NCBI GenBank assembly: GCA_963708075.1
Contig: OY970194.1
Location: 5,792,001 to 5,856,000 of the forward strand
Source: Sedimentisphaerales bacterium
GTDB taxonomy: Bacteria; Planctomycetota; Phycisphaerae; Sedimentisphaerales; Anaerobacaceae
Direction of reading: 5' to 3'
Length of the DNA: 64,000 nucleotides
Under the pieces are notes generated by a model. It was not told the origin of the DNA. It saw only the letters and a list, made by a program, of their open reading frames with translations, and did no database searches. Both the position numbers and the translations under genes were made by a program. Shown here in pieces: positions 8,140-50,571 of this stretch. The first letter of the stretch is position 1. Each line of letters starts with the position of its first letter.

Positions 8140-8185
8140 GCGTCCAAGCCGTAGACTCTTTACTTTTCAGATCATCGATATCCAT

Positions 8186-8223
8186 CCGGGTGGCAGCGTC
8201 AAGGCCGCAGGCCTTGGCGATGG
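8186..8223. repeat. Half copy of the GGGTGGCA-family repeat
   Basis: CCGGGTGGCAGCGTCAAGGCCGCAGGCCTTGGCGATGG is the reverse complement of the right arm of copy E and differs by one base from that of copy B. Confidence 0.8.
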
Positions 8224-8249
8224 GTCCGCCGCGAGTGCCTTCACTCTAC

Positions 8250-17008: not shown

Positions 17009-18028
17009 CTACAGCTTCGCGATTCTCTCGATCAGGTCCACGCTGCGGCAGGAGTACCCCCACTCGTTATCGTACCACATGGTGACTTTCACCATATCGC
17101 CGTCGAGGACGATCGTGTTGTTGGAATCGAAGATCGAGCTGGCCGGATTGCCGATGACGTCCGAGGACACGATGGGATCGGTCACGTACTCGATGATGCC
17201 CTTCATGGGGCCTTCGGCGGCGGCCTTCATGGCGCCATTGATCTCCTCGACGCTCGTCTTGCGGGCGGCCATGAACGTCAGGTCGGTAATCGAACCATCA
17301 GGCACCGGGACTCGCAGGGCATAGCCGTGCAGCTTGCCCTTGAGGGCCGGAATGACCTCGCCCAGGGCTTTGGCGGCGCCGGTGGTCGAGGGCACGGTGT
17401 TCAGTGCCGCCGCGCGGCCGCGACGCTTGTCCTTGTACGGCATGTCCAGAATCGCCTGGTCGTTCGTATAGGCGTGCACCGTCGTCATCAGGCCCTTGAC
17501 GATCCCGATCTTCTCGTGCAGGACCTTGCAGGCCGGGGCCAGCGAGTTCGTCGTGCACGAGGCATTGGAAATGCACTTCATCGACGCGTTCAGCTCGCTG
17601 TCATTGACGCCCAGAACGATGGTGGCATCGGGCTTGTCCTTGGCCGGGGCCGACAGAAGCACGCGCTTGGCGCCTGCCGCCAGATGCGTATCGAAACCTG
17701 CCTTGCCCTCGACAGCCCGGGAGGTGAACCTGCCGGTGGATTCCAGCACGACGTCCACGCCCATCTTGCCCCAGGGCAGCTTGGCCGGGTCTTTCTCATT
17801 GAGGATCGGGATCTCCTTGCCGTTGATCACGATCGAGGTCCCTTTGACCTCCACCTTGCCGGGGAACTTGCCCTGGGTGGAGTCATATTTGAACATGTAG
17901 GCCAGCATGTCGGCGTCGAACAGATCGTTGATCGCCACCACCTGCATCGTTTTGAACTTGTCGGCCATTGCACGGACTACAAGCCGGCCGATGCGGCCGA
18001 AACCATTTACGCCAACCTTAATTGCCAT
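17009..18028 (-). CDS. gap: Glyceraldehyde-3-phosphate dehydrogenase (type I)
   Basis: [38 protein letters not shown] and WYDNEWGYS. The true start is 18028; the longer ORF is read-through from upstream non-GAPDH sequence. Confidence 0.98.
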
Positions 18029-18109
18029 GTACCTTTCTCCTTTACCTGCATTGTATTTGCTGCGATCAGACACCTCGCTCTGCGGAGAGCGTGTGAAAAC
18101 GAAGTGGAC

Positions 18110-18138
18110 ACTGTAGCGGCCGGGGCCCCCTCTGTCAA
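18110..18138 (-). promoter_or_regulatory. Sigma70-type promoter of the gap-pgk-rpe operon
   Basis: TTGACA (18138-18133), 17-nt spacer, TACAGT (18115-18110). Confidence 0.65.
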
Positions 18139-18439
18139 GCAATATTCTCCCTACTGACAGGGGGGGTATGGTCGGCGTTCGGTGGTGGATTCGGGGCGGC
18201 GCGTAGGACAAGCGTCCTCGCTCGTCCCTCTTCGGCCGTCGCCTTGCACAATATACGCCCGCTGCAAGGGCCCGAACTGGTCGTGCGGAGACGCCCGACC
18301 CCCGATCCGGTCGGGGGCAGGCTCTGCGAAGAGGCTCGCCGATTGCCACCGTACTGCGACCACGCCTCATGCCGGGTGTTGGATTGGAATGACGTAAGTA
18401 TGTGAGCAGCAGGCAGTTAGCCGCATTGGTCGTGCTGAG

Positions 18440-19475
18440 CAAGACACCGGCACAATCGTCACCAGATTGCCCTTGTGGCAGGTCATGGCGAAGCCCTTGA
18501 ACTTCAGCACCGATTCGAGCAGCGGGTACAGGTCCTTGACCCGAACTTCCCCCTGGAGCTTGCCATGGAGCCGAAGCGAGAACCAACTGGCCCTTGATCT
18601 TCTCGGGCTCATACATGTAGTCCAGCCGCAGGTACTCGGCCACGAGATCCAGCAACTGGATCATCTCCAGCCGGTCCGGCAGGTCCAACTGCAGCACATC
18701 CTCCGCATTACTCGGCAGCACCGGCTCCAGCGAGCGGATCACTTTTGCCGGTTTCGTAGACTTGCCGGCAGGCTCAACGGCAATCGTGCCCCTCGTCTCC
18801 AACGGCTCCTCAGGCGGTCTGACAGCCGGTCCAGGGCGCGGGTTCCCTCCGGCGACAGTCTCAGGCTTCGTAGCAGTGCCGAGGGCTGCATCCTGCGGCG
18901 TTGAAGTCAAAATCGCGGGCGTTACCTCAACGGCAGTCGGTTTTGGCTGATCGGGCGTAATCGGGGTTGATATTGCCTCTGATGGCGAGTCATTCGGCTT
19001 TGGCACTTGAGGGTCTGCCTGAGCCTGGGCAACAGGAGTCTCTATGTGTCGGTCACCCACCGCTGCTCCCCCTCGCCGGAGCCGACCTCCGAGATCAACG
19101 CCATCGACCTTTTCGGCTCATTCGGATAATAGCTCGTCGCGCACAACCTGAACCGCGCCGAAGGAGCCGCAGGCCGGACAACCGGGACCACTGATGCAGG
19201 ACTCGCCGTCGAAGCCGTCAATGTTGGTTTCTCAGGACTCTTCGGCGGGTCCAGTCCCAAGGCCAGCAGCTTCGCCTGTACCACCAGCGGCGAATCCCCA
19301 ATGGAGCGTACTCTCGATTCGCCGCCCCGTGCACTAAACCGTTGGACAGCACCGGGCCGATTGAGAAACTCCGCAACCTCCCGGTCAACCCTGCCTCGCT
19401 CGGACCACCATCGCCCAAGCACGCCGCCAGCCGTCAGCATCGCGCAAGCGCCAAGATGTAGAATGCTCTCACCAT
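18440..19475 (-). pseudogene. Fragmented type II secretion-like gene (GspC-like region plus secretin N0-like domain)
   Basis: TM helix and [29 protein letters not shown], then a Pro-rich linker and [36 protein letters not shown] / [31 protein letters not shown]. Spread over several frames and ends abruptly. Confidence 0.6.
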
Positions 19476-19567
19476 GAGGCATCGTCAAAAGGACATCTAC
19501 GAACGCTGCGCTTGGCTGGCAGGTGGAACATCTAACGCATTCCTGGCGTTTCACGGATTCGATACGC

Positions 19568-20870
19568 CTACTTCTGAGGCAGACTCCGCGAGGGCTCAAT
19601 CGATAACTTCTTTTCGATGGCTCGCATGGCCTGGGTTGCAGCTTCTCGAACAGGAAACCACCGTCTCGCCATCTTCCAGGACGGGTCGGATTCAGGCCGG
19701 ATCGGAGCCATACGCGGACCTGTGTTCACGTACTGGCCATCGACCATTTCGAAGATCGGGCCATGGAAATCGACTATCTCAAGGGGATCGTCCCTGACAA
19801 GCTGTTCAAGGAATGGTATATCCTCCTTTGTCCCGATGATTCCCAGGGCCCTTGCCGCCTGGCAACGCATGTTGGTCATGACCACCATGTTCGGGTCCAG
19901 CAGTACATCGCGTAACTCATCCTTCACGGCAGACTCTCCCTTGAGTGCAAGGGCTATGACAACAGCAGCTTGTGGCCTCCCGCTCAGACCGTCCTTAGCA
20001 TCGCGTAGGGATGATATAGTGCCGCCGAGCTTCGTCAACGCGTCGATGAGATAGTAGTACATCATGTCAGCAAGGGTCCCGGCGACATCTGATTGCAGCC
20101 TCTCGTTGCGTGTCGGCATATTCTCCACGCTGCGGATGGATTCGACGATGGCGGCAACTTTCTCACCAGCGATCGCCGAACCGCTGTCATTGGCAAGGAC
20201 CGATGCCGCGTGCATACGTATGCCGAAGTTCGTAATAGGGTGATGTACTGTGCTCTGCAAGTGACTCCTTAGAGAGACAAGAAGGCCTCTATCAACAGCC
20301 ACACCGGACAGATGTTGAAGGGCAATGGAAATCACGTCCGGATCGTCCGATTTGAGCAACGGAAGGATGGCCTCTTTGTTCGGTGCAATCTTCACAAAGT
20401 TCCTGGCAGCCCAGGAAGAATAAGAAGTCTGGTTAGGGTTGTACTTGGTTATGGCTATGTCGAGCAATGCGTCTCTGGCTCTGGGTGTGCCGATCTTGGC
20501 CAGCACAACGATGATCTTGTGTCGAGGGACTCCCACACGGGCACGATACTTGCGCGAGCAGATCCACAACATCGTCTCCCATCGCAGCGATCTCGTCAAT
20601 AGCCGCATTGATTCTGGCCTCGTGTTCTTCGAATTGGAGCTTTCTTTTCGCCAGGTATTCGTCGCGCACCCTTCTGTCCTTGGATTTCTGGATCTCCGGC
20701 GGGACCGGGATCGAAGGCTCCCTCTCACCGATCACTTCCAGAAGATGCTTCAATCGTTGCTCGTCCAACTTCGCGTTTGTCTGTGATGATGCCCTATTCG
20801 ACCACACAAGCAATAACACCGCTGCCAGTCCTATGCCGATGACGAGCATGTTGTTCTTATTCAAGTTCAT
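19568..20870 (-). CDS. Secreted HEAT-repeat protein (apparent frameshift at ~20553)
   Basis: Signal/TM segment MNLNKNNMLVIGIGLAAVLLLVW. HEAT-like segments LAKIGTPRARDALL, LLKSDDPDVISIALQHL, RCQAARALGIIG..DIPFLEQL and FPVREAATQA lie in a second frame. Confidence 0.65.
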
Positions 20871-20891
20871 CGCATTTCCTTTCCGAGTATG

Positions 20892-20925
20892 GGGCATTCG
20901 GGGGTCAGCCCTCAAATTAACAATT
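20892..20925. repeat. Third, divergent GGCATT-GGGGGTCA element end
   Basis: GGGCATTCGGGGGTCAGCCCTCAAATTAACAATT shares GGCATT(C)GGGGGTCA with the left ends at 21019 and 23405. Confidence 0.6.
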
Positions 20926-20949
20926 AGCGACCAGCGGTCTTCAATTCTG

Positions 20950-21024
20950 GGTAGGCATTGGTAGGCATTGGTAGGCATTGGTAGGCATTGGTAGGCATTG
21001 GTAGGCATTGGTAGGGTAGGCATT
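20950..21024. repeat. 10-bp tandem repeat (GGTAGGCATT) x6 plus partial copies
   Basis: Six consecutive GTAGGCATTG units, then GTAGGGTAGGCATTG running directly into the 264-bp element. Confidence 0.95.
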
Positions 21025-21287
21025 GGGGGTCACACCTACACATTTCACTTTCCTCATAGTTCCTTCCCTGTCTGCCCAGGGGCCAGCAGGTCGCTTACGT
21101 CACGCCGATAGAGTACCACTGGTGCCCTGAAACCGCAAGGGGACTTTCATTCTCTCCCGTCTCCCGAACATCACGCATGACCCCCAGTTTAGGCAGGGGC
21201 ATTTTCTTTTGCCGCACGATCAGAAAGCCACTTGCCCCGGGAGCGCGCCTCCGATGCACAATGTGAAATGTGTAGGTGTGACCCCCA
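21024..21287. mobile_element. 264-bp non-autonomous element (MITE-like), copy 1, with 25-bp perfect terminal inverted repeats
   Basis: TGGGGGTCACACCTACACATTTCAC (21024-21048) and GTGAAATGTGTAGGTGTGACCCCCA (21263-21287); direct-repeat copy at 23410; no internal transposase. Confidence 0.85.
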
Positions 21288-22235
21288 GTTGTTCTGTAAG
21301 GGATGACCCTCGAAGGCCCCCTCATTGCCCCCCCCTTTCGTTTCCCCTTTTGTCTCTTCCGCCTTACGCACACAACGAAAACCAGTAGCTCCACTTAATG
21401 AATACTTCCCCAAAGGATAGTTTGCACCACGATCACCACATATGAGGAACACATCTCGGTACGATCCGCCCCGAACCACTTTCATGCCGCCCACCTCTGG
21501 ACCATATGGGTTGTTGAGTGGACTGTTTTTATAATAGTCCCTGTCATACCAATCGCTACACCACTCCGCCGCATTTCCTAACATATCATAGAGTCCCCAC
21601 GGATTGGGCTTCTTCTGTCCGACAGGCAAGAGCTTGGGTAGTGGCCTATTCCACTTTCCAGTCTCTGCCATCGCTTCATTATACTCACCTCCATCTGACC
21701 AGTAATTGGCGTAGTCTATGGGGTCGTTGACATCATTTCCAAAGAAGTACTTGGTGCTGGTTCCCGCCCGGCAGGCATACTCCCATTCCGCCTCTGTAGG
21801 AAGTCGATATCCATTCTTGCTGAAATCACACTCCCAAGTGCTCACGTCATAACATGGCTGCAAACCCTCTGCCGCGGACCTGACATTGCAGTATCGCACG
21901 GCATCGAACCAGGAGACTCTGGTCACAGGATAGTCCTTGCCAATCGAAGAACTGTCAATCTCTGGAGGTTCTTCACGTAATCCTCTCTTGGTATCAGAGG
22001 GATTTTCCCGCATCAGGGCGATATACACCCCTTGGGTGACTTCATACTTATCGATGAAGAAGGCATCGACATGGACCTTATGTACAGGCTCAGAATCCTT
22101 CACCCACTCTGACACATGTCCCATCATAAAGGAGCCCGCAGAGACACGAACCATATCATCCCTACTGGCAGCATGGCTCACTGATGCCACGTGCATTGAC
22201 ACAAGAAGGCACAAAAGACAACATCGACCACGCAT
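21189..22235 (-). CDS. Formylglycine-generating enzyme (SUMF1/FGE-sulfatase) family secreted protein, paralog 1
   Basis: GSFMMG, FFIDKYEVT, PVTRVSWFDAVRYCN, YRLPTEAEWEYACRAG, PNPWGLYDMLGN, RGGSY and GFRCVR. The natural stop is probably TGA at 21322-21324 if the G8 run is really G9. Confidence 0.88.
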   Translation of the reverse strand: MRGRCCLLCLLVSMHVASVSHAASRDDMVRVSAGSFMMGHVSEWVKDSEPVHKVHVDAFFIDKYEVTQGVYIALMRENPSDTKRGLREEPPEIDSSSIGKDYPVTRVSWFDAVRYCNVRSAAEGLQPCYDVSTWECDFSKNGYRLPTEAEWEYACRAGTSTKYFFGNDVNDPIDYANYWSDGGEYNEAMAETGKWNRPLPKLLPVGQKKPNPWGLYDMLGNAAEWCSDWYDRDYYKNSPLNNPYGPEVGGMKVVRGGSYRDVFLICGDRGANYPLGKYSLSGATGFRCVRKAEETKGETKGGGNEGAFEGHPLQNNWGSHLHISHCASEARSRGKWLSDRAAKENAPA

Positions 22236-23155
22236 TATCTCCCTTTCATCTCCCGCTCTGTTTCCTCTTTTGTCTCTTCCGCCTTGCGAACACAACGAAA
22301 CCCAATAGTCCCGCTTACTGACTTCCTACCCAAAGGGTATCCTGCATTCCGAATAGCACACGCTACCAGACCGCCTTCATCTCTATAGCTTCCCCCTCTG
22401 ACAACTTTCATTACGCCGTGCTCCGGGCCCTTTGGATTGTCTTCAGGACTGCGCCCATAGTAGTTCTCGTCATACCAATCATTGCACCACTCTTCCGCAT
22501 TCCCCAACATATCATGAAGTCCCCATGGGTTCGGTTTCTTCTGCCCTACAGGAACCAGCCGCGGAAGCGGTTCATCCCACTTTTGCCCCTCAGCCATCAC
22601 TTCATAGTAGGTCTCGCCCCCTTTCCAATAATTGGCATACAGGATGAGTGCGTTCGCATCCTCGCCGTGGAAATATTCCGTAGTGGTTCCGGCCCGGCAG
22701 GCATACTCCCATTCCGCCTCCGTAGGAAGTCGATATCCATTCTTGCTGAAATCACACTCCCACGTACTCGCGTCGTAACACACCTCCAACCCCTCTGCCG
22801 CGGACCTGGCATTGCAGTATCGCACGGCATCAAACCAGGAGACTCTGGTCACAGGATAGTCCTTGCCAATCGAAGAACTGTCAATCATTGGAGGTTCTTC
22901 ACGTAATCCTCTCTTGATATCCGAGGGGTTCTCCCGCATCAGGGCGCTGTAAGCCCCTTGGGTGACTTCGTATTTATCGATGAAGAAGGCATCAACATGT
23001 ACCTTATGTTCAGGACGTTCTGGAATGCCTTGGGTACACCCCATGATGAAGGAGCCTGGGGAGACGTGAACCATCTCCGGCTGATTCGCGGCATGGCTAC
23101 ATAGAACAAATGCGAGTATCACCACTATACTGTATCTGTAATCCTGGCTTACCAT
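22235..23155 (-). CDS. FGE-sulfatase family secreted protein, paralog 2
   Basis: Same motifs as paralog 1; signal peptide; TAATG overlap with paralog 1. Confidence 0.9.
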   Translation of the reverse strand: MVSQDYRYSIVVILAFVLCSHAANQPEMVHVSPGSFIMGCTQGIPERPEHKVHVDAFFIDKYEVTQGAYSALMRENPSDIKRGLREEPPMIDSSSIGKDYPVTRVSWFDAVRYCNARSAAEGLEVCYDASTWECDFSKNGYRLPTEAEWEYACRAGTTTEYFHGEDANALILYANYWKGGETYYEVMAEGQKWDEPLPRLVPVGQKKPNPWGLHDMLGNAEEWCNDWYDENYYGRSPEDNPKGPEHGVMKVVRGGSYRDEGGLVACAIRNAGYPLGRKSVSGTIGFRCVRKAEETKEETEREMKGR

Positions 23156-23169
23156 AACCACCCCTTTCA

Positions 23170-23405
23170 CTAGTTTGGGTCATAAACGGTTACCCAACGC
23201 CGACTTGTTATATTAAGGTCATTGGCATTGTAATATGCCTCAGCTGTTTCATGACGAAATTTCCCACTAACTGTATCCCCAGCGTAGGTCTGTGCTGTTG
23301 CGCCAGTTCCTGCGTTTTTGACCGTTTGCCAGTGCTTAAACACAGCACTTTCTTTTGTTACGCCATACTGCAATTCCAGTATCCAACCGCGACTGAGGTT
23401 ACAGG
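23170..23405 (-). pseudogene. 3' fragment of an unknown gene truncated by element copy 2
   Basis: ~78 codons open from the element boundary to TAG 23170, immediately upstream of FGE paralog 2. The only ATG lies inside the element flank. Confidence 0.55.
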
Positions 23406-23409
23406 GCAT

Positions 23410-23672
23410 TGGGGGTCACACCTACACATTTCACTTTCCTCATAGTTCCTTCCCTGTCTGCCCAGGGGCCAGCAGGTCGCTTACGTCACGCCGATAGAGT
23501 ACCACCGGTGCCCTGAAACCGCAAGGGGACTTTCATTCTCTCCCGTCTCGCGAACATCACGCATGACCCCCAGTTTAGGCAGGGGCATTTTCTTTTGCCG
23601 CACGATCAGAAAGCCACTTGCCCCGGGAGCGCACCTCCGATGCACAATGTGAAATGTGTAGGTGTGACCCCA
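23410..23672. mobile_element. 264-bp MITE-like element, copy 2
   Basis: Direct repeat of 21024-21287 with about three internal substitutions and a small change at the right end; same TIRs. Confidence 0.85.
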
Positions 23673-23827
23673 CGTTGTTCCGGCTTGTCTATCGTCCGGA
23701 GCACCCCTGTCCAAGTGAGAGACATGGGGGGGCAGCGGCCAGCAGAGCCATTCATGGGTCTTCGGCGCACCCGAATGAGGATGAAAATGCCATGCTCTTC
23801 GTGGGTCGTGCGTCCTCGCACGACCTT

Positions 23828-23958
23828 GGGCGAGCGGGGACGCTCGCCCTACGCGGAGATCTGTCCGGCGTATTTTCAGAGGAGTCTTCGGCGCTTGCCG
23901 ATGGCGTTGACGCACATCCCACGAGCCATCGGCAAGCTGCGCTTGCCGCTGCCACCCA
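23828..23958. repeat. CCTAC-ended REP and partial GGGTGGCA-family repeat
   Basis: GGGCGAGCGGGGACGCTCGCCCTAC and GCTTGCCGATGG...CCATCGGCAAGCTGCGCTTGCCGCTGCCACCC. Confidence 0.65.
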
Positions 23959-24017
23959 TCATGACCATTGAATCCGAAACAGCTTACACTCAGCTTGGCA
24001 CGCGTGGTCGTTTGGAG

Positions 24018-26936
24018 CTATTTCCCTTCGGTTGCGATGGGCAAGCGGAGGCGGACGCTGTAGAGCGAGGACCTGGCGGTGATGAACAGGGTCTTGCGGT
24101 CTTGGCCGCCGAAGACCAGGCAGGTGGGACGCTGGGGGACTTCGATGGTGTCGATCGGTTTGCCGGAGGGGTCGAAGACAAGAATCTGGCCGGCGGCGAT
24201 GTAGACGTTGCCATGATTGTCGGTCGTGACATTTTCCCCGCCCTCGGTGGCGAACAGCCTCGGGTCGGAGAGTGTGCTGTCCTCGCCTGCCTTGAAAGAC
24301 CACGTTTTCAGCTCTGCTTCGTTGGTCACGTAGAAGGGCCGTCCTGCGACGGCGGGGGCCAGTCTGAAGGCGCGCAGCACGTCGGCCATCTTGGTGCCCC
24401 ACATCATGGCCCCGGAGGTAAAGTCCTTGCCGGCGGGAATGAACGTGGTGCCGTCAGGCGAGAGGTAGTGGAACGGCTTGGGCGTGGTCGAGTCCCGCAG
24501 GAACTCGTCATCGCCCATCCACCGATTCACCGGCAGGACCGCCGTCATCCCGGGGCGCGGTGCGGCAGGCTGAGGCGTCAGAGTCACGATCTCGCTGTCG
24601 TTGACATCCGGGCGGAAGGCAAGCACCGTCCCATTGCCGGCGTAGCAGACGACCAGCAGGTTGCCCGCCTTGTCAAACGCCAGTTGGGTGGGCTGCTGCG
24701 GGATCTCACGGACCCGCTCCGTGCGGCGGTTCTCCGGCGACCAGCGGTAAATGCGGTTCTCACGAGCGTCGGCGAAGTAGACGTTGCCCTTGGCATCCAC
24801 GGCGGCTCCGGCGATGTTCAAGAACCCATCGGCGAGCTTCTCGACCTTCGCTCCGTCAGCGAGGACGGTTGAACTTGATTGCGGCTTTGCGGGGAGCGGA
24901 TCGCCGGAGATATCCAGCAGGGCGAACTCGGAGTCACGGACCTCGACATTGGCCGTCGCATCGAAGATCGTGCTGTCGAAGGAGACTTTGCTGTTGCTGT
25001 AGCAGTGGACGTTTCGGAAGCGGATGTCACGGGACTCGCTGACCTTCGTCGCATACGGGAACGGCACGAAGCAACTGATCACACGGTAGAAGAAGGTGTT
25101 GGCGAACTGAATGTCGCTGCAGCGGTCGATCTCCAGGGGCAGGGCCTTCGGACCTTCTTCCCGCTCTTCCTCGAATTGCACTGCGTAGAATCGCCAGTGG
25201 GAAGCGTTGCGAAGGATCATCTCGTTGGTGACGTGGTGCTCCAGGGACATCGCGTACACTCGGCCGCTGGTGGACGTGTCCGAAACGAGCATCCCGGCCT
25301 GTGCGTAGGGGCTGGGCGTCCAGATGTCCTTGAAGGTCCCGCCGCCGCCATCGGTAACCCAGAGGCTGGCGTACTGGCTGTTCCATGCCTCGCGATTGCC
25401 GAGCCTGCCGAAGCCGCCGCGTTCGCCGGGAACCCTTGTGCCGTGCCCGCCATGCAGGCGGACGTCGTTCATCATGGAATTCGCCCCGGCCATCCATTTC
25501 ACACCGACGGCCCGGGAATTGACCGCGCCGGTATAGACCCCGATGCCCGTGACGATATTGGTGCCACCTTTTGGGGCCTCGATGACCGGCTTGGGTTCGC
25601 CGGGCCCTTGGAACGCAGGCGTCTTGTCCGGCAGGTTGATCACCGTGGCCGACGGGTGAAGACCGATCAGCACGGTGTCCGGCCGGAGCGTCAGCGTGTC
25701 ACTGACACAGTACCATCCCATCGGCAGATAGAGCGTTCGGTGCTTGGCAATGGCTTCTTTGAGAGCCGCCGTATCGTCGGTTTTGCCGTCGCCGGTCACA
25801 CCCAGCGTTCGGACGTTGATCCATGTCGCCGGGTCGGGCAGGATGGGGATATCCGACTCTATCAGCGCAGCCAGGGCGGGTGCCTCGTGGGCCGCCAGGG
25901 TGGTCTTGATCTGCCGGGCAGCACCCATACCGGCGAGGTGCAGCCCGTGGGTGAACTGCTCGACCACATAGACAGGCCCGACCCCTGCGACTGTCTTGCC
26001 GCTCTCGCGGAAGCCGGCGAGGACCGGCACTCCCTTGCACGCGACGTTTTGCAGGTTGATCTGGGTCCGGGCGCTTCTCTCGTCGCTGATGATCAGGGCC
26101 GGTCCGGTGATGTTCTCCAGGCGCGCGTCGCTGATCCAGAGTTCGTCGGGGTGGCCCGGGACGAGGGAGACTGCCGTGGGGATGTTCCTGAATTGCGGGC
26201 GCACGACGGTCAATCCGGCCTGTTGATCGCTGATGGCCGCGACAGTCTGGTCTTCGAACGTGCAGTCGATCACGAGAATGGGCCAGCCGGGGGCGGAGCG
26301 TTTCGTGATGATGCCGTACTGGCCGCCGTGGAAGTGGAGGTCTTCAACCTCGTTACCGATGTCTTCGAGTCCCGCCCGGGCCGAGCCGAGCCGGAAATCC
26401 ATGTGAGCGAGGTAGCAGTGCTGGGCCACGTGGAAGCGGACGCCGACGGCCGCGGGATTGCCCGGCCCGATCTCGATGTCGATGTTGCTCATGGCGCTAT
26501 AGAACGTGCCGGCGCCGCCGTCCTGAGGAGGGCCGTCATTCCTGCCCCGCCCGCCGGAAAAGAAGAGCATGTACTTGCCTGTCCCATCATGGAAACCGGG
26601 AGTATTCTCGGCGAGGGTCAGGACCGGCCGGGTGTCGCCGTAGCCGATCAGGCGGATGCCGGGCCAGACGTAGACGGTCTTCGTGAGGCGATAGGTCCCC
26701 TTCGGGATGAACAGGACGCCGGCCCCGGTGCCGGAGGCGACCTTGTCGATCGCTTGCTGCAGGGCCGTGGAATCGTCCCCGACTCCATCGCCATGTACGG
26801 GGAAATCCTTTTGAGTCAGGTAGACCGCCGCCGGGTCGTCCAGGCGTTCGGGATAGAACGAGGCCCCGTTGAGAAGTCCGGGTAACAACACGATAGATGC
26901 GAAGAAGAACCACGCCAGGATAGATCTGTGAGCCAT
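24018..26936 (-). CDS. Secreted beta-helix glycoside hydrolase-like protein (two pectate_lyase_3/GH55-type modules) fused to an SMP-30/gluconolactonase beta-propeller
   Basis: Two GDGxxDDxxALxxAI...GxY motifs; C-terminal GENVTTDNHGNVYIA...PTCLVFGGQDRKTLFITARSSLY; signal peptide. Confidence 0.8.
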   Translation of the reverse strand: MAHRSILAWFFFASIVLLPGLLNGASFYPERLDDPAAVYLTQKDFPVHGDGVGDDSTALQQAIDKVASGTGAGVLFIPKGTYRLTKTVYVWPGIRLIGYGDTRPVLTLAENTPGFHDGTGKYMLFFSGGRGRNDGPPQDGGAGTFYSAMSNIDIEIGPGNPAAVGVRFHVAQHCYLAHMDFRLGSARAGLEDIGNEVEDLHFHGGQYGIITKRSAPGWPILVIDCTFEDQTVAAISDQQAGLTVVRPQFRNIPTAVSLVPGHPDELWISDARLENITGPALIISDERSARTQINLQNVACKGVPVLAGFRESGKTVAGVGPVYVVEQFTHGLHLAGMGAARQIKTTLAAHEAPALAALIESDIPILPDPATWINVRTLGVTGDGKTDDTAALKEAIAKHRTLYLPMGWYCVSDTLTLRPDTVLIGLHPSATVINLPDKTPAFQGPGEPKPVIEAPKGGTNIVTGIGVYTGAVNSRAVGVKWMAGANSMMNDVRLHGGHGTRVPGERGGFGRLGNREAWNSQYASLWVTDGGGGTFKDIWTPSPYAQAGMLVSDTSTSGRVYAMSLEHHVTNEMILRNASHWRFYAVQFEEEREEGPKALPLEIDRCSDIQFANTFFYRVISCFVPFPYATKVSESRDIRFRNVHCYSNSKVSFDSTIFDATANVEVRDSEFALLDISGDPLPAKPQSSSTVLADGAKVEKLADGFLNIAGAAVDAKGNVYFADARENRIYRWSPENRRTERVREIPQQPTQLAFDKAGNLLVVCYAGNGTVLAFRPDVNDSEIVTLTPQPAAPRPGMTAVLPVNRWMGDDEFLRDSTTPKPFHYLSPDGTTFIPAGKDFTSGAMMWGTKMADVLRAFRLAPAVAGRPFYVTNEAELKTWSFKAGEDSTLSDPRLFATEGGENVTTDNHGNVYIAAGQILVFDPSGKPIDTIEVPQRPTCLVFGGQDRKTLFITARSSLYSVRLRLPIATEGK

Positions 26937-27020
26937 GCCATGTCCCCTCAACAGAGTGTTGACAGAATTTCCGTGACTGGAGGGATTATGGCGCTTTGGC
27001 TCGCGCAATTCAATGGCCTA

Positions 27021-27070
27021 TTGGTCCATTGGACTCGGTGGACTTAGTGGACGCATAGGACCTATGGGAC
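27021..27070. repeat. Degenerate 9-bp GGAC-periodic repeat
   Basis: TTGGACTCGGTGGACTTAGTGGACGCATAGGACCTATGGGAC; a similar tract lies at 53223-53260. Confidence 0.55.
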
Positions 27071-38046: not shown

Positions 38047-38228
38047 GTCATCCTGAGGCGATGCCGAAGGATCTGGGCTGAGGCGGGAACAAGCATCGCT
38101 CATATCCACTACTCAGATTCTTCGCTCCTCTGAAAAAAACGCGGCGTTGACGTGTAGGGTGGGTTCTCAACCCACGCGTCCAGGAATGCGTAGCTCGAAA
38201 AACCGCGTGGGTCAAGGACCCACCCTAC
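38047..38228. repeat. REP cluster between convergent genes
   Basis: GTCATCCTGAG...GAAGGATCT...AGATTCTTCGCT and the inverted pair GTAGGGTGGGTTCTCAACCCACGCG...CGCGTGGGTCAAGGACCCACCCTAC. Confidence 0.75.
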
Positions 38229-50445: not shown

Positions 50446-50571
50446 GCACGACAGGATTTTGGCAGAGCAAGCATGAGGTTGTGGGTGGCAGCGTCAAGCG
50501 CAGCTTGGCGATGGCATTCCTGGAATGCGGTGCAACCATCGCCAAGGCCTGCGGCCTTGACGCTGCCACCC
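50446..50571. repeat. GGGTGGCA-family repeat with leader (copy E)
   Basis: Close match to 2734-2863 over both leader and arms. Confidence 0.85.

Follow-up and report, generated by a model that had tools for sequence, protein, structure and literature searches.

A slice of lower-GC DNA bounded by two gene-less TIRtron derivatives in a Sedimentisphaerales genome suggests joining of foreign DNA by a Y1 transposase

The window analyzed here is a stretch of 64,000 nucleotides (C1:5792001-5856000) within the single 7.5-Mb contig C1 of the genome of a Sedimentisphaerales bacterium (G000, 60.4% GC), and our subject is a pair of nearly identical repeats, gene-less derivatives of the TIRtron class of mobile elements, together with the DNA which they enclose. 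Copy 1 (21019..21294, + strand) and copy 2 (23405..23680, + strand, in direct orientation relative to copy 1) were each 276 nt long and were 98% identical, with 5 differences. An earlier note on this stretch had recorded direct repeats of 264 bp at 21024-21287 and 23410-23672 with approximately 98% identity, and these proved to be real. The slice between the copies measured 2,110 nt with a GC content of 50.7% versus 60.4% for the genome, in agreement with the approximately 2.1 kb of AT-richer DNA described before. In what follows G019 and G022 are draft relatives of the genus, L-numbers are fetched loci and P0001-P0012 are database relatives of the first gene of the slice.

Read on the minus strand, the slice begins inside a gene, as had been claimed. 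The open reading frame (ORF) of 79 codons at 23170..23404 is the 3' stump of a gene for a secreted protein and matches the last ~75 residues of a family in which the longer proteins reach 270-740 aa, with Ig/PKD-like domains and a C-terminal domain probably of the NlpC/P60/CHAP fold; a search of the genome did not turn up the upstream remainder. A possible start of the stump reading MPC was rejected because its ATG lies in the element's own flank. Nineteen relatives were obtained at E<=0.001, the best with 45-55% identity, and alignments revealed that the stump retains the His and Asp of the family and lacks its invariant Cys. Behind the stump lie two FGE-sulfatase-like genes on the same strand, the complete FGE1 (22235..23155, Pfam PF03781 2e-54) and FGE2 (21339..22235, Pfam PF03781 1e-52), which has a signal-peptide-like start and, as assembled, no stop before the element. 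The Pfam domain and an identity of 71% between the two confirmed that they are paralogs. FGE2 does not contain a CxxxxC sequence after RGGS, which we take to be the catalytic motif of FGE. A third gene, proposed to start with MRGPSRV, would need a one-base change in a run of eight G and matches the start of FGE2 at only 3 residues, and we did not retain it. With FGE2 reading into the element as assembled and no proof of a third gene, the claim that the slice was cut mid-gene at both ends stands for the stump end only. No near-identical source of this DNA, and no such intact donor locus for the stump and FGE genes, was found in the genome or in the collection of genome contigs, where the best FGE relatives were 47-53% identical.

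An FGE-like gene (47-52% identical to FGE1) was found directly behind an intact or long-fragment relative of the stump at four places in three loci of other bacteria (L140, L141 twice, L142), and FGE2 was 55% identical to the gene behind an intact relative. The gene order in L141 was a long gene, an FGE gene, a shorter C-terminal copy, another FGE gene and then a Y1 gene. Although no Pfam family covered the C-terminal domain of the stump family (P0001-P0012; L140, L141, L142), the family alignment contained an invariant Cys257 and His317 and a near-invariant Asp336. A structural model of P0003 (mean predicted local distance difference test score 67, C-terminal domain mostly above 80) was used in a fold search, in which the best match had a Z of 9.4, modestly above the level common for unrelated models, with a root-mean-square deviation of 3.7 over 123 aligned residues, and the top rows were nearly all NlpC/P60/CHAP cell-wall hydrolases. 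The stump gene family probably encodes a cell-wall toxin with an NlpC/P60-like domain, and gene order indicates that FGE1 and FGE2 are probably immunity genes. Toxin-immunity loci have just this arrangement, in which a signal-peptide protein comes behind a secreted wall hydrolase and tips recur, and it is from the intact pairing of NlpC-like and FGE-like genes in the relatives that toxin and immunity are inferred. No open-access paper was found which combines, in the same three terms, the NlpC/P60-like toxin family with FGE-like proteins, and the locus hints at an undescribed toxin family of this type paired with FGE-like proteins.

Neither of the two copies carries a gene, each being a dimer of terminal inverted repeats (TIRs). 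In copy 1 the TIRs occupy 21026-21051 and 21260-21285, and an outer flank of 7 nt on the left and 9 nt on the right is common with copy 2. The inner TIRs of each copy, given before as 25 bp, were 26-28 nt long and paired into one long stem (z -4.2; 0/200 shuffles were as stable). This stem forms only between the two TIRs of a copy, and the TIR is not the short self-palindromic repeat with a GTAG or CGTC tag that is typical of repetitive extragenic palindromes (REPs) and REP-associated tyrosine transposases (RAYTs). All four TIRs in the window are GGGGTCAC and fit the consensus GGGGWSAS. When the outer flanks were compared, no target-site duplication was present at the outer ends of the pair or around either copy, which bears out the earlier description of shared extra flanks in place of such duplications and the view that this is not a simple composite transposon. 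As to copy number, the whole 276-bp unit occurs only twice in the genome and its TIR at about 30 sites (30 ends in 21 loci, 17 of the ends being solitary). The interior of the unit has relatives in 3/23 genomes of the genus, and the unit is thus an established gene-less subfamily.

Two complete elements with the same TIR were located at C1:478624-479773 and 6908893-6910042. They are 1,150 bp long and 99.6% identical, and encode a 336-aa Y1/HUH transposase (Pfam Y1_Tnp 1e-10; gene at C1:478732-479742 in the first element) between an inverted TIR pair. The 276-bp unit belongs to the TIRtron/TIRYT class of Y1/HUH transposase elements. TIRtrons were named in 2013 (Di Nocera, De Gregorio, Rocco; PMC3733652), and their TIRs fit GGGGWSAS and are dispersed as singles, dimers or clusters (PMC3733652), as is the TIR family studied here. 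TIRYT is the TnpA-Y1 subclass 2.1 (Quentin et al. 2018, PMC6006769) and corresponds to RAYT group 1 (Bertels et al. 2017, PMC5581495). The type of TIR tracked the transposase subfamily: three of the five loci with transposases at 69-79% identity carried the window TIR type at -94 to -101, and none of 13 loci with Y1 orthologues at 36-43% identity did, most of these having other GGGGTC-type ends. Within the genus the exact TIR pattern was present in 8/23 genomes (0/37 other genomes) and close orthologues of the cognate transposase in 4/23. The earlier note had guessed at a HUH/Y1 enzyme encoded elsewhere, and the guess is upheld by this co-variation and by the two complete elements, which do enclose a transposase between the same ends. 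The cognate protein has a ~170-aa C-terminal extension whose last 100 aa gave no helix-turn-helix (HTH) match; a paralogue matched HTH_28 (E 0.001) and the tail of a relative matched Bac_DnaA_C (6.5e-9), and Bac_DnaA_C, HTH_23 and HTH_28 are the C-terminal HTH types of subclass 2.1 (PMC6006769). Biochemical tests of TIRYT are proposed and not reported in the available text of PMC3733652, PMC6006769 and PMC5581495. Another TIR-headed Y1 gene, at G000 C1:5283887-5284901, carries a tandem duplication of its 5' 520 nt.

To compare the two sides of the TIR ends in G000, the GC content of 700 nt outside and inside the G-run of each TIR was determined with a threshold of 55%. For the window TIR family, 21/30 ends fell below the threshold outside and 5/30 inside, the genome background being 5.3% and a REP family giving 4/296. 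Flanks of two control families of DDE-type insertion sequences (IS) fell below it at 5/30 and 1/26. At 16 of the 17 solitary TIRs the lower-GC DNA was on the outer, G-run side. Short tandem duplications touched the outer junction at 13/93 ends belonging to four TIR families, compared with 1/93 and 0/93 at +/-150 nt and 31/3000 at random positions. Ten duplications spanning the junction were found among 236 ends, with the left edge at -8..-10 in 8/10 and the right edge at +6..+14. In the window, the unit of a 10-nt tandem outside copy 1 is -10..-1, and the right flank common to the copies ends at -9.

Contigs from sample runs X1 and X2 were also used, runs X3 and X4 being left out because they cover the stretch too sparsely. 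The right junction of copy 2 (23656-23791) was present in a contig of run X2, which is from another sample. In a contig of this run the right end of the element was joined directly to position 22097 inside FGE2, such that 804 nt were skipped (21292..22097); this variant-junction contig had a depth of 3.9, with 44 letters on the short side and 320 letters on the slice side without difference. A second case of direct copies, one truncated and one complete, surrounds a 50%-GC slice at C1:477893-479773, and the genome gave two Rhs core/tip boundary motifs in all, each of which adjoins a TIR end. The outer flanks differed among 55 distinct family ends and gave only a purine-rich consensus. The claim that foreign DNA is joined at a conserved end therefore survives in part: GC polarity, junction duplications and the alternative junction of run X2 speak for joining at the end, and a single, invariant junction was not borne out. 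Taken as a whole, lower-GC foreign DNA in this genome lies mostly on one fixed side of the TIR ends, suggesting that the enzyme splices foreign DNA in.

Some further joints were noted. In L144 (G000 C1:6906496-6911499) a TIR of one family truncates an Rhs core fragment at the core/tip boundary, and at the same boundary an Rhs tip is joined to the complete Y1 element; a small gene and a further Y1 gene come next, and these 5 kb contain four TIR-type ends. P0007 and P0009, known from protein sequence alone, are short proteins which open with a peptide equal to a translated TIRtron end and continue with the same toxin-like tip as the stump family; this leading peptide was found three times in G000, and two of these occurrences are translations of the TIRs of a single Y1 element. 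P0009 has a 5-residue tandem duplication at the joint of TIR peptide and tip. DNA for the short relative P0011 was not found among 522 candidates, and a word index gave no short relatives of the stump. In run X2 the end of a 1.84-kb element, which encodes a 578-aa transposase-like ORF, was joined to window position 23656 inside the right TIR of copy 2. Copies of this presumably IS1182-like element lie at G000 C1:3515783-3517622, 6494473-6496312 and 6209023-6210851, all three directly behind a GGGTCA-type end, and it may be an IS which targets TIRtron ends.

To the left of copy 1, the 10-nt tandem (20951..21025, + strand) consists of seven copies plus one 5-nt part, its unit being the -10..-1 sequence outside the left G-run of that copy, and is probably the footprint of repeated joining. 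Further left is a solitary TIR (20901..20927, + strand) which is of the 3' end type and belongs to a second TIRtron subfamily; its interior breaks off after about 50 nt. A third related end had been noted here and is indeed present, 30 nt before the HEAT ATG at 20870; a complete Y1 element in L183 has the same sequence as its 3' TIR, with similar ones in L176 and L177, and since this is a different Y1 subfamily the third end is not the same TIR as that of the repeats. It has one close sister in the genome (C1:6485594, L154), which adjoins an MmeI-type restriction-modification gene on its outer side. The HEAT-repeat gene outside the third end (19568..20870, - strand; 54% GC; Pfam HEAT_2 1e-14), a further piece of cargo, encodes an N-terminal hydrophobic segment and is in two frames, with a frameshift near 20560-20575 in the assembly. 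This frameshift may be an assembly error because run X1 differs from the assembly by single-base indels nearby, at 18581 and 19450. No relatives of the HEAT gene were confirmed among 48 candidates in the collection of genome contigs.

These features lie in the interval from gap to an aminotransferase gene (window 18045-27049), which was different in every relative fetched and often contained TIR-type ends or a Y1 gene. Among these relatives a clean empty allele was not found, and gap and the aminotransferase were neighbours only in L124. Upstream of gap, a secretin (GspD N0)-like gene fragment (window 18367-19060) contains a frameshift at 18581; run X1 reads differently at this point, and the assembly may be at fault. 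To the right of copy 2, dispersed REP-like repeats (23727..24006) with many matches genome-wide mark a host intergenic region and not cargo. Two abundant REP-like families (~296 and ~125 matches genome-wide) are unrelated to the TIRs, and members in the window lie at 130-219, 2772-2861, 8181-8233, 23925-23961, 50482-50571 and 38153-38228. Rfam gave 0 matches within window 18000-24500.

We think it somewhat better than an even bet that the 276-bp unit is a gene-less TIRtron which is acted on in trans by its cognate Y1/HUH transposase and whose ends are joined to almost freely varying partner DNA. Judging from the junction footprints, the position at which the enzyme would break and rejoin DNA hardly varies, lying 6-10 nt (mostly 9) outside the TIR G-run, and the partner end would be almost free. 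In HUH chemistry, as established for IS200/IS605 and RAYT, the tyrosine carries a 5' end and hands it over to a 3'-OH, and by analogy the TIR-bearing 5' end would be passed to whichever 3'-OH is available. With a nearby end of the same molecule as partner the outcome would be a short tandem duplication or an end-adjacent deletion; with foreign DNA it would be a junction cut at an arbitrary point and no target duplication. In this way two direct copies may have come to enclose part of a toxin-immunity locus, in the manner of an IS26 pseudo-compound transposon, either by slice and one copy re-entering, perhaps as a circle, beside another copy or by trimming in place, in the variable gap-to-aminotransferase interval. 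What the slice would have kept is the pair of immunity-like genes, probably because antidotes are useful, together with a toxin stump that is non-catalytic. A bolder claim, which we hold possible and rather doubtful, is that TIR-associated Y1 transposases in general are one-ended capture enzymes, that a TIR cut ~9 nt outside its G-run takes arbitrary foreign DNA, and that bacteria in this way build up stores of orphan genes for immunity and defence, taking the tips of toxin loci again and again; our estimate for it spans the host-serving variant discussed below and that part of the preferred reading in which foreign DNA is truly captured.

Several observations weigh against joining by the transposase, or against the toxin-immunity interpretation of the cargo. 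Polarity was weak in the draft relatives, GC being lower outside at 11/19 ends of G019 and 3/6 of G022 (500-nt windows, all pattern matches of both genomes, several cut by contig ends), and TIR family C was low in GC on both sides (20/38 outside, 10/38 inside, p 0.08), as would be the case if its members simply resided in islands. Outside the two complete elements the shared sequence is 6 nt long instead of 9, the variant junction is a single contig matched at 90% likeness, and the duplication test has built-in limits on possible edge positions. The analysis turned up neither an empty site nor a circle nor a near-identical donor, and among the listed joints of the sample contigs (contigs only) none goes back as a circle would. 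In G022 a TIR lies in a ~70-bp cargo-free insertion between host genes (L097, G022:C9, about 2667-2738), the same junction being without the insertion in G000 at C1:6394084. The FGE subfamily also occurs without a toxin-like gene in L004, behind a beta-galactosidase, and in L001, and three further toxin-like relatives from two genomes had no FGE gene in loci extending 1.5 kb past the match, two of these matches being without the C-terminal end. TIR families also cluster above random, with 11/21 family loci <=3 kb from another TIR family (random mean 0.8), and 30/120 low-GC tracts contain a TIR (random 3.6). As the TIR families cluster and the interval varies across the genus, residence in a hotspot explains part of the picture. 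This clustering, the interval that differs in every relative examined and the weak polarity of the drafts all favour passive wreckage, in which a toxin-immunity island arrived by another route, TIRtron derivatives, with a preference for islands and for one another's vicinity, inserted into it, host recombination or slippage removed the flanks, and the transposase moves only itself. We regard such an origin as unlikely. It leaves unexplained the one-sided polarity at 16/17 solitary ends, the fixed left edge of the duplications and a deletion in run X2 which stops <=2 nt from the outer boundary of the element, and neither outer flank continues the cut gene.

At the other extreme, TIRYT enzymes and dispersed TIRs could have been domesticated to collect orphan immunity and defence genes for the host, as a HUH counterpart of rAID clusters and integrons. 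Cargo adjoining the ends does include an Rhs tip with small genes, a Fic toxin (mobile mystery protein B), DUF4238, PIN, DUF5131, nucleoside-deoxyribosyltransferase-like and DUF2971 genes, the tip of the same toxin family has probably been captured repeatedly, and the subclass has been tied to diversifying lanthipeptide genes (bioRxiv 10.1101/2020.03.09.984088), although the authors of that preprint withdrew the causal claim in a note. We nevertheless find a host-serving role decidedly unlikely: the complete element, 99.6% duplicated and patchy in the genus, looks like a selfish one, no ordered array, promoter or regulation was seen, 17/30 tested cargo proteins had no Pfam family, and the immunity role of the cargo is predicted only. 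The ordered array of cassettes or large spacers with an invariant junction which the earlier note had envisaged, on the model of integrons, is largely refuted and very improbable. The two repeats do have flanks in common, 6 nt of flank recur at the third end and the cargo genes are all co-directional, but the unit is present in two copies only, most ends are solitary, flanks vary among the 55 ends, the third end is of another family, no attC-like pattern was found, and the slices are not gene-sized, the present one being cut inside a gene. To an assembly artefact we give hardly any credence. Probable single-base indel errors lie nearby and no listed contig spans the whole structure; on the other hand, the copies differ at 5 positions and in their flanks, run X1 gave depth in 30/30 bins with long pieces free of substitutions, and run X2 links the element end to the slice and contains the right junction of copy 2.

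Comparison with known systems places the locus between several of them. Orphan modules of Rhs/CDI (contact-dependent growth inhibition) loci consist of a 3' toxin fragment followed by immunity genes and normally trail a full toxin gene; the window has the fragment and immunity-like genes alike, but the full toxin gene is absent. ISCR elements (IS common regions) capture DNA one-endedly by a Y2 rolling-circle HUH enzyme with ori and ter ends, and share with this locus HUH capture of adjacent DNA without target duplication, whereas their ends are not symmetric TIRs as here. Integron cassettes are whole genes, whereas this slice starts ~75 codons from a gene end, and no attC-like RYYYAAC..GTTRRRY was found on either strand of 18000-24500 with a simple consensus pattern, which is not a covariance model. 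IS26 has a DDE transposase, and its pseudo-compound transposons resemble the window and C1:477893-479773 in having directly oriented bounding copies and no target duplication; in the window, however, the copies are gene-less and 276 bp long and the cognate enzyme is of the Y1/HUH type. With IS26, adjacent deletion and a one-copy circle can yield a directly bounded slice (PMC8722046). By analogy of function the closest known system is rAID-1 of Bacteroidales, where low-GC, co-directional probable immunity genes lie beside repeated intergenic motifs; it differs in having an adjacent XerD-family recombinase and up to 31 genes (bioRxiv 10.1101/471110), as opposed to two predicted immunity-like genes, a toxin stump and a HUH enzyme in trans. 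A Pfam scan of eight ORFs of the region found no recombinase among these. TnpA-REP genes of subclass 2.1 beside prochlorosin genes are likewise full and truncated copies next to variable genes with a proposed diversifying recombination; cargo and host are different, the available text describes no junctions, and the authors note that causality is unsupported either way (bioRxiv 10.1101/2020.03.09.984088). With described TIRtrons and TIRYTs the locus shares a Y1/HUH gene between GGGGWSAS-type TIRs, dispersed TIR families and some gene duplication, but here a TIR dimer stands twice in direct orientation around foreign genes, with an inferred break 6-10 nt outside the TIR, and the available text of those papers gives no cleavage site, cargo or polarity (PMC3733652, PMC6006769, PMC5581495).

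The class of the element is known. New at this locus are a cut position deduced from junction footprints, a polarity measured against controls, a naturally occurring variant of the junction and the cargo of a toxin tip with immunity-like genes. The open-access literature searched gave no account of cut position, polarity, variant junction or toxin-tip cargo at TIRtron ends, and searches for polymorphic toxins with RAYT, or TnpAREP with gene capture, defense or cassettes, returned nothing on topic in open-access titles and abstract starts. TIRYT/subclass 2.1 transposases are widespread, yet the names TIRYT and TIRtron are rare in that literature. With its cognate enzyme, short substrate, predicted site of cutting and naturally occurring junction variant, the locus makes the role of the enzyme directly testable. 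Should TIRYT enzymes indeed attach foreign DNA to their ends, defence and immunity islands would have a builder that has so far gone unrecognised, and, if the bolder claim of one-ended capture is true, a HUH-based gene-capture system would stand alongside integrons, rAID and CRISPR adaptation.

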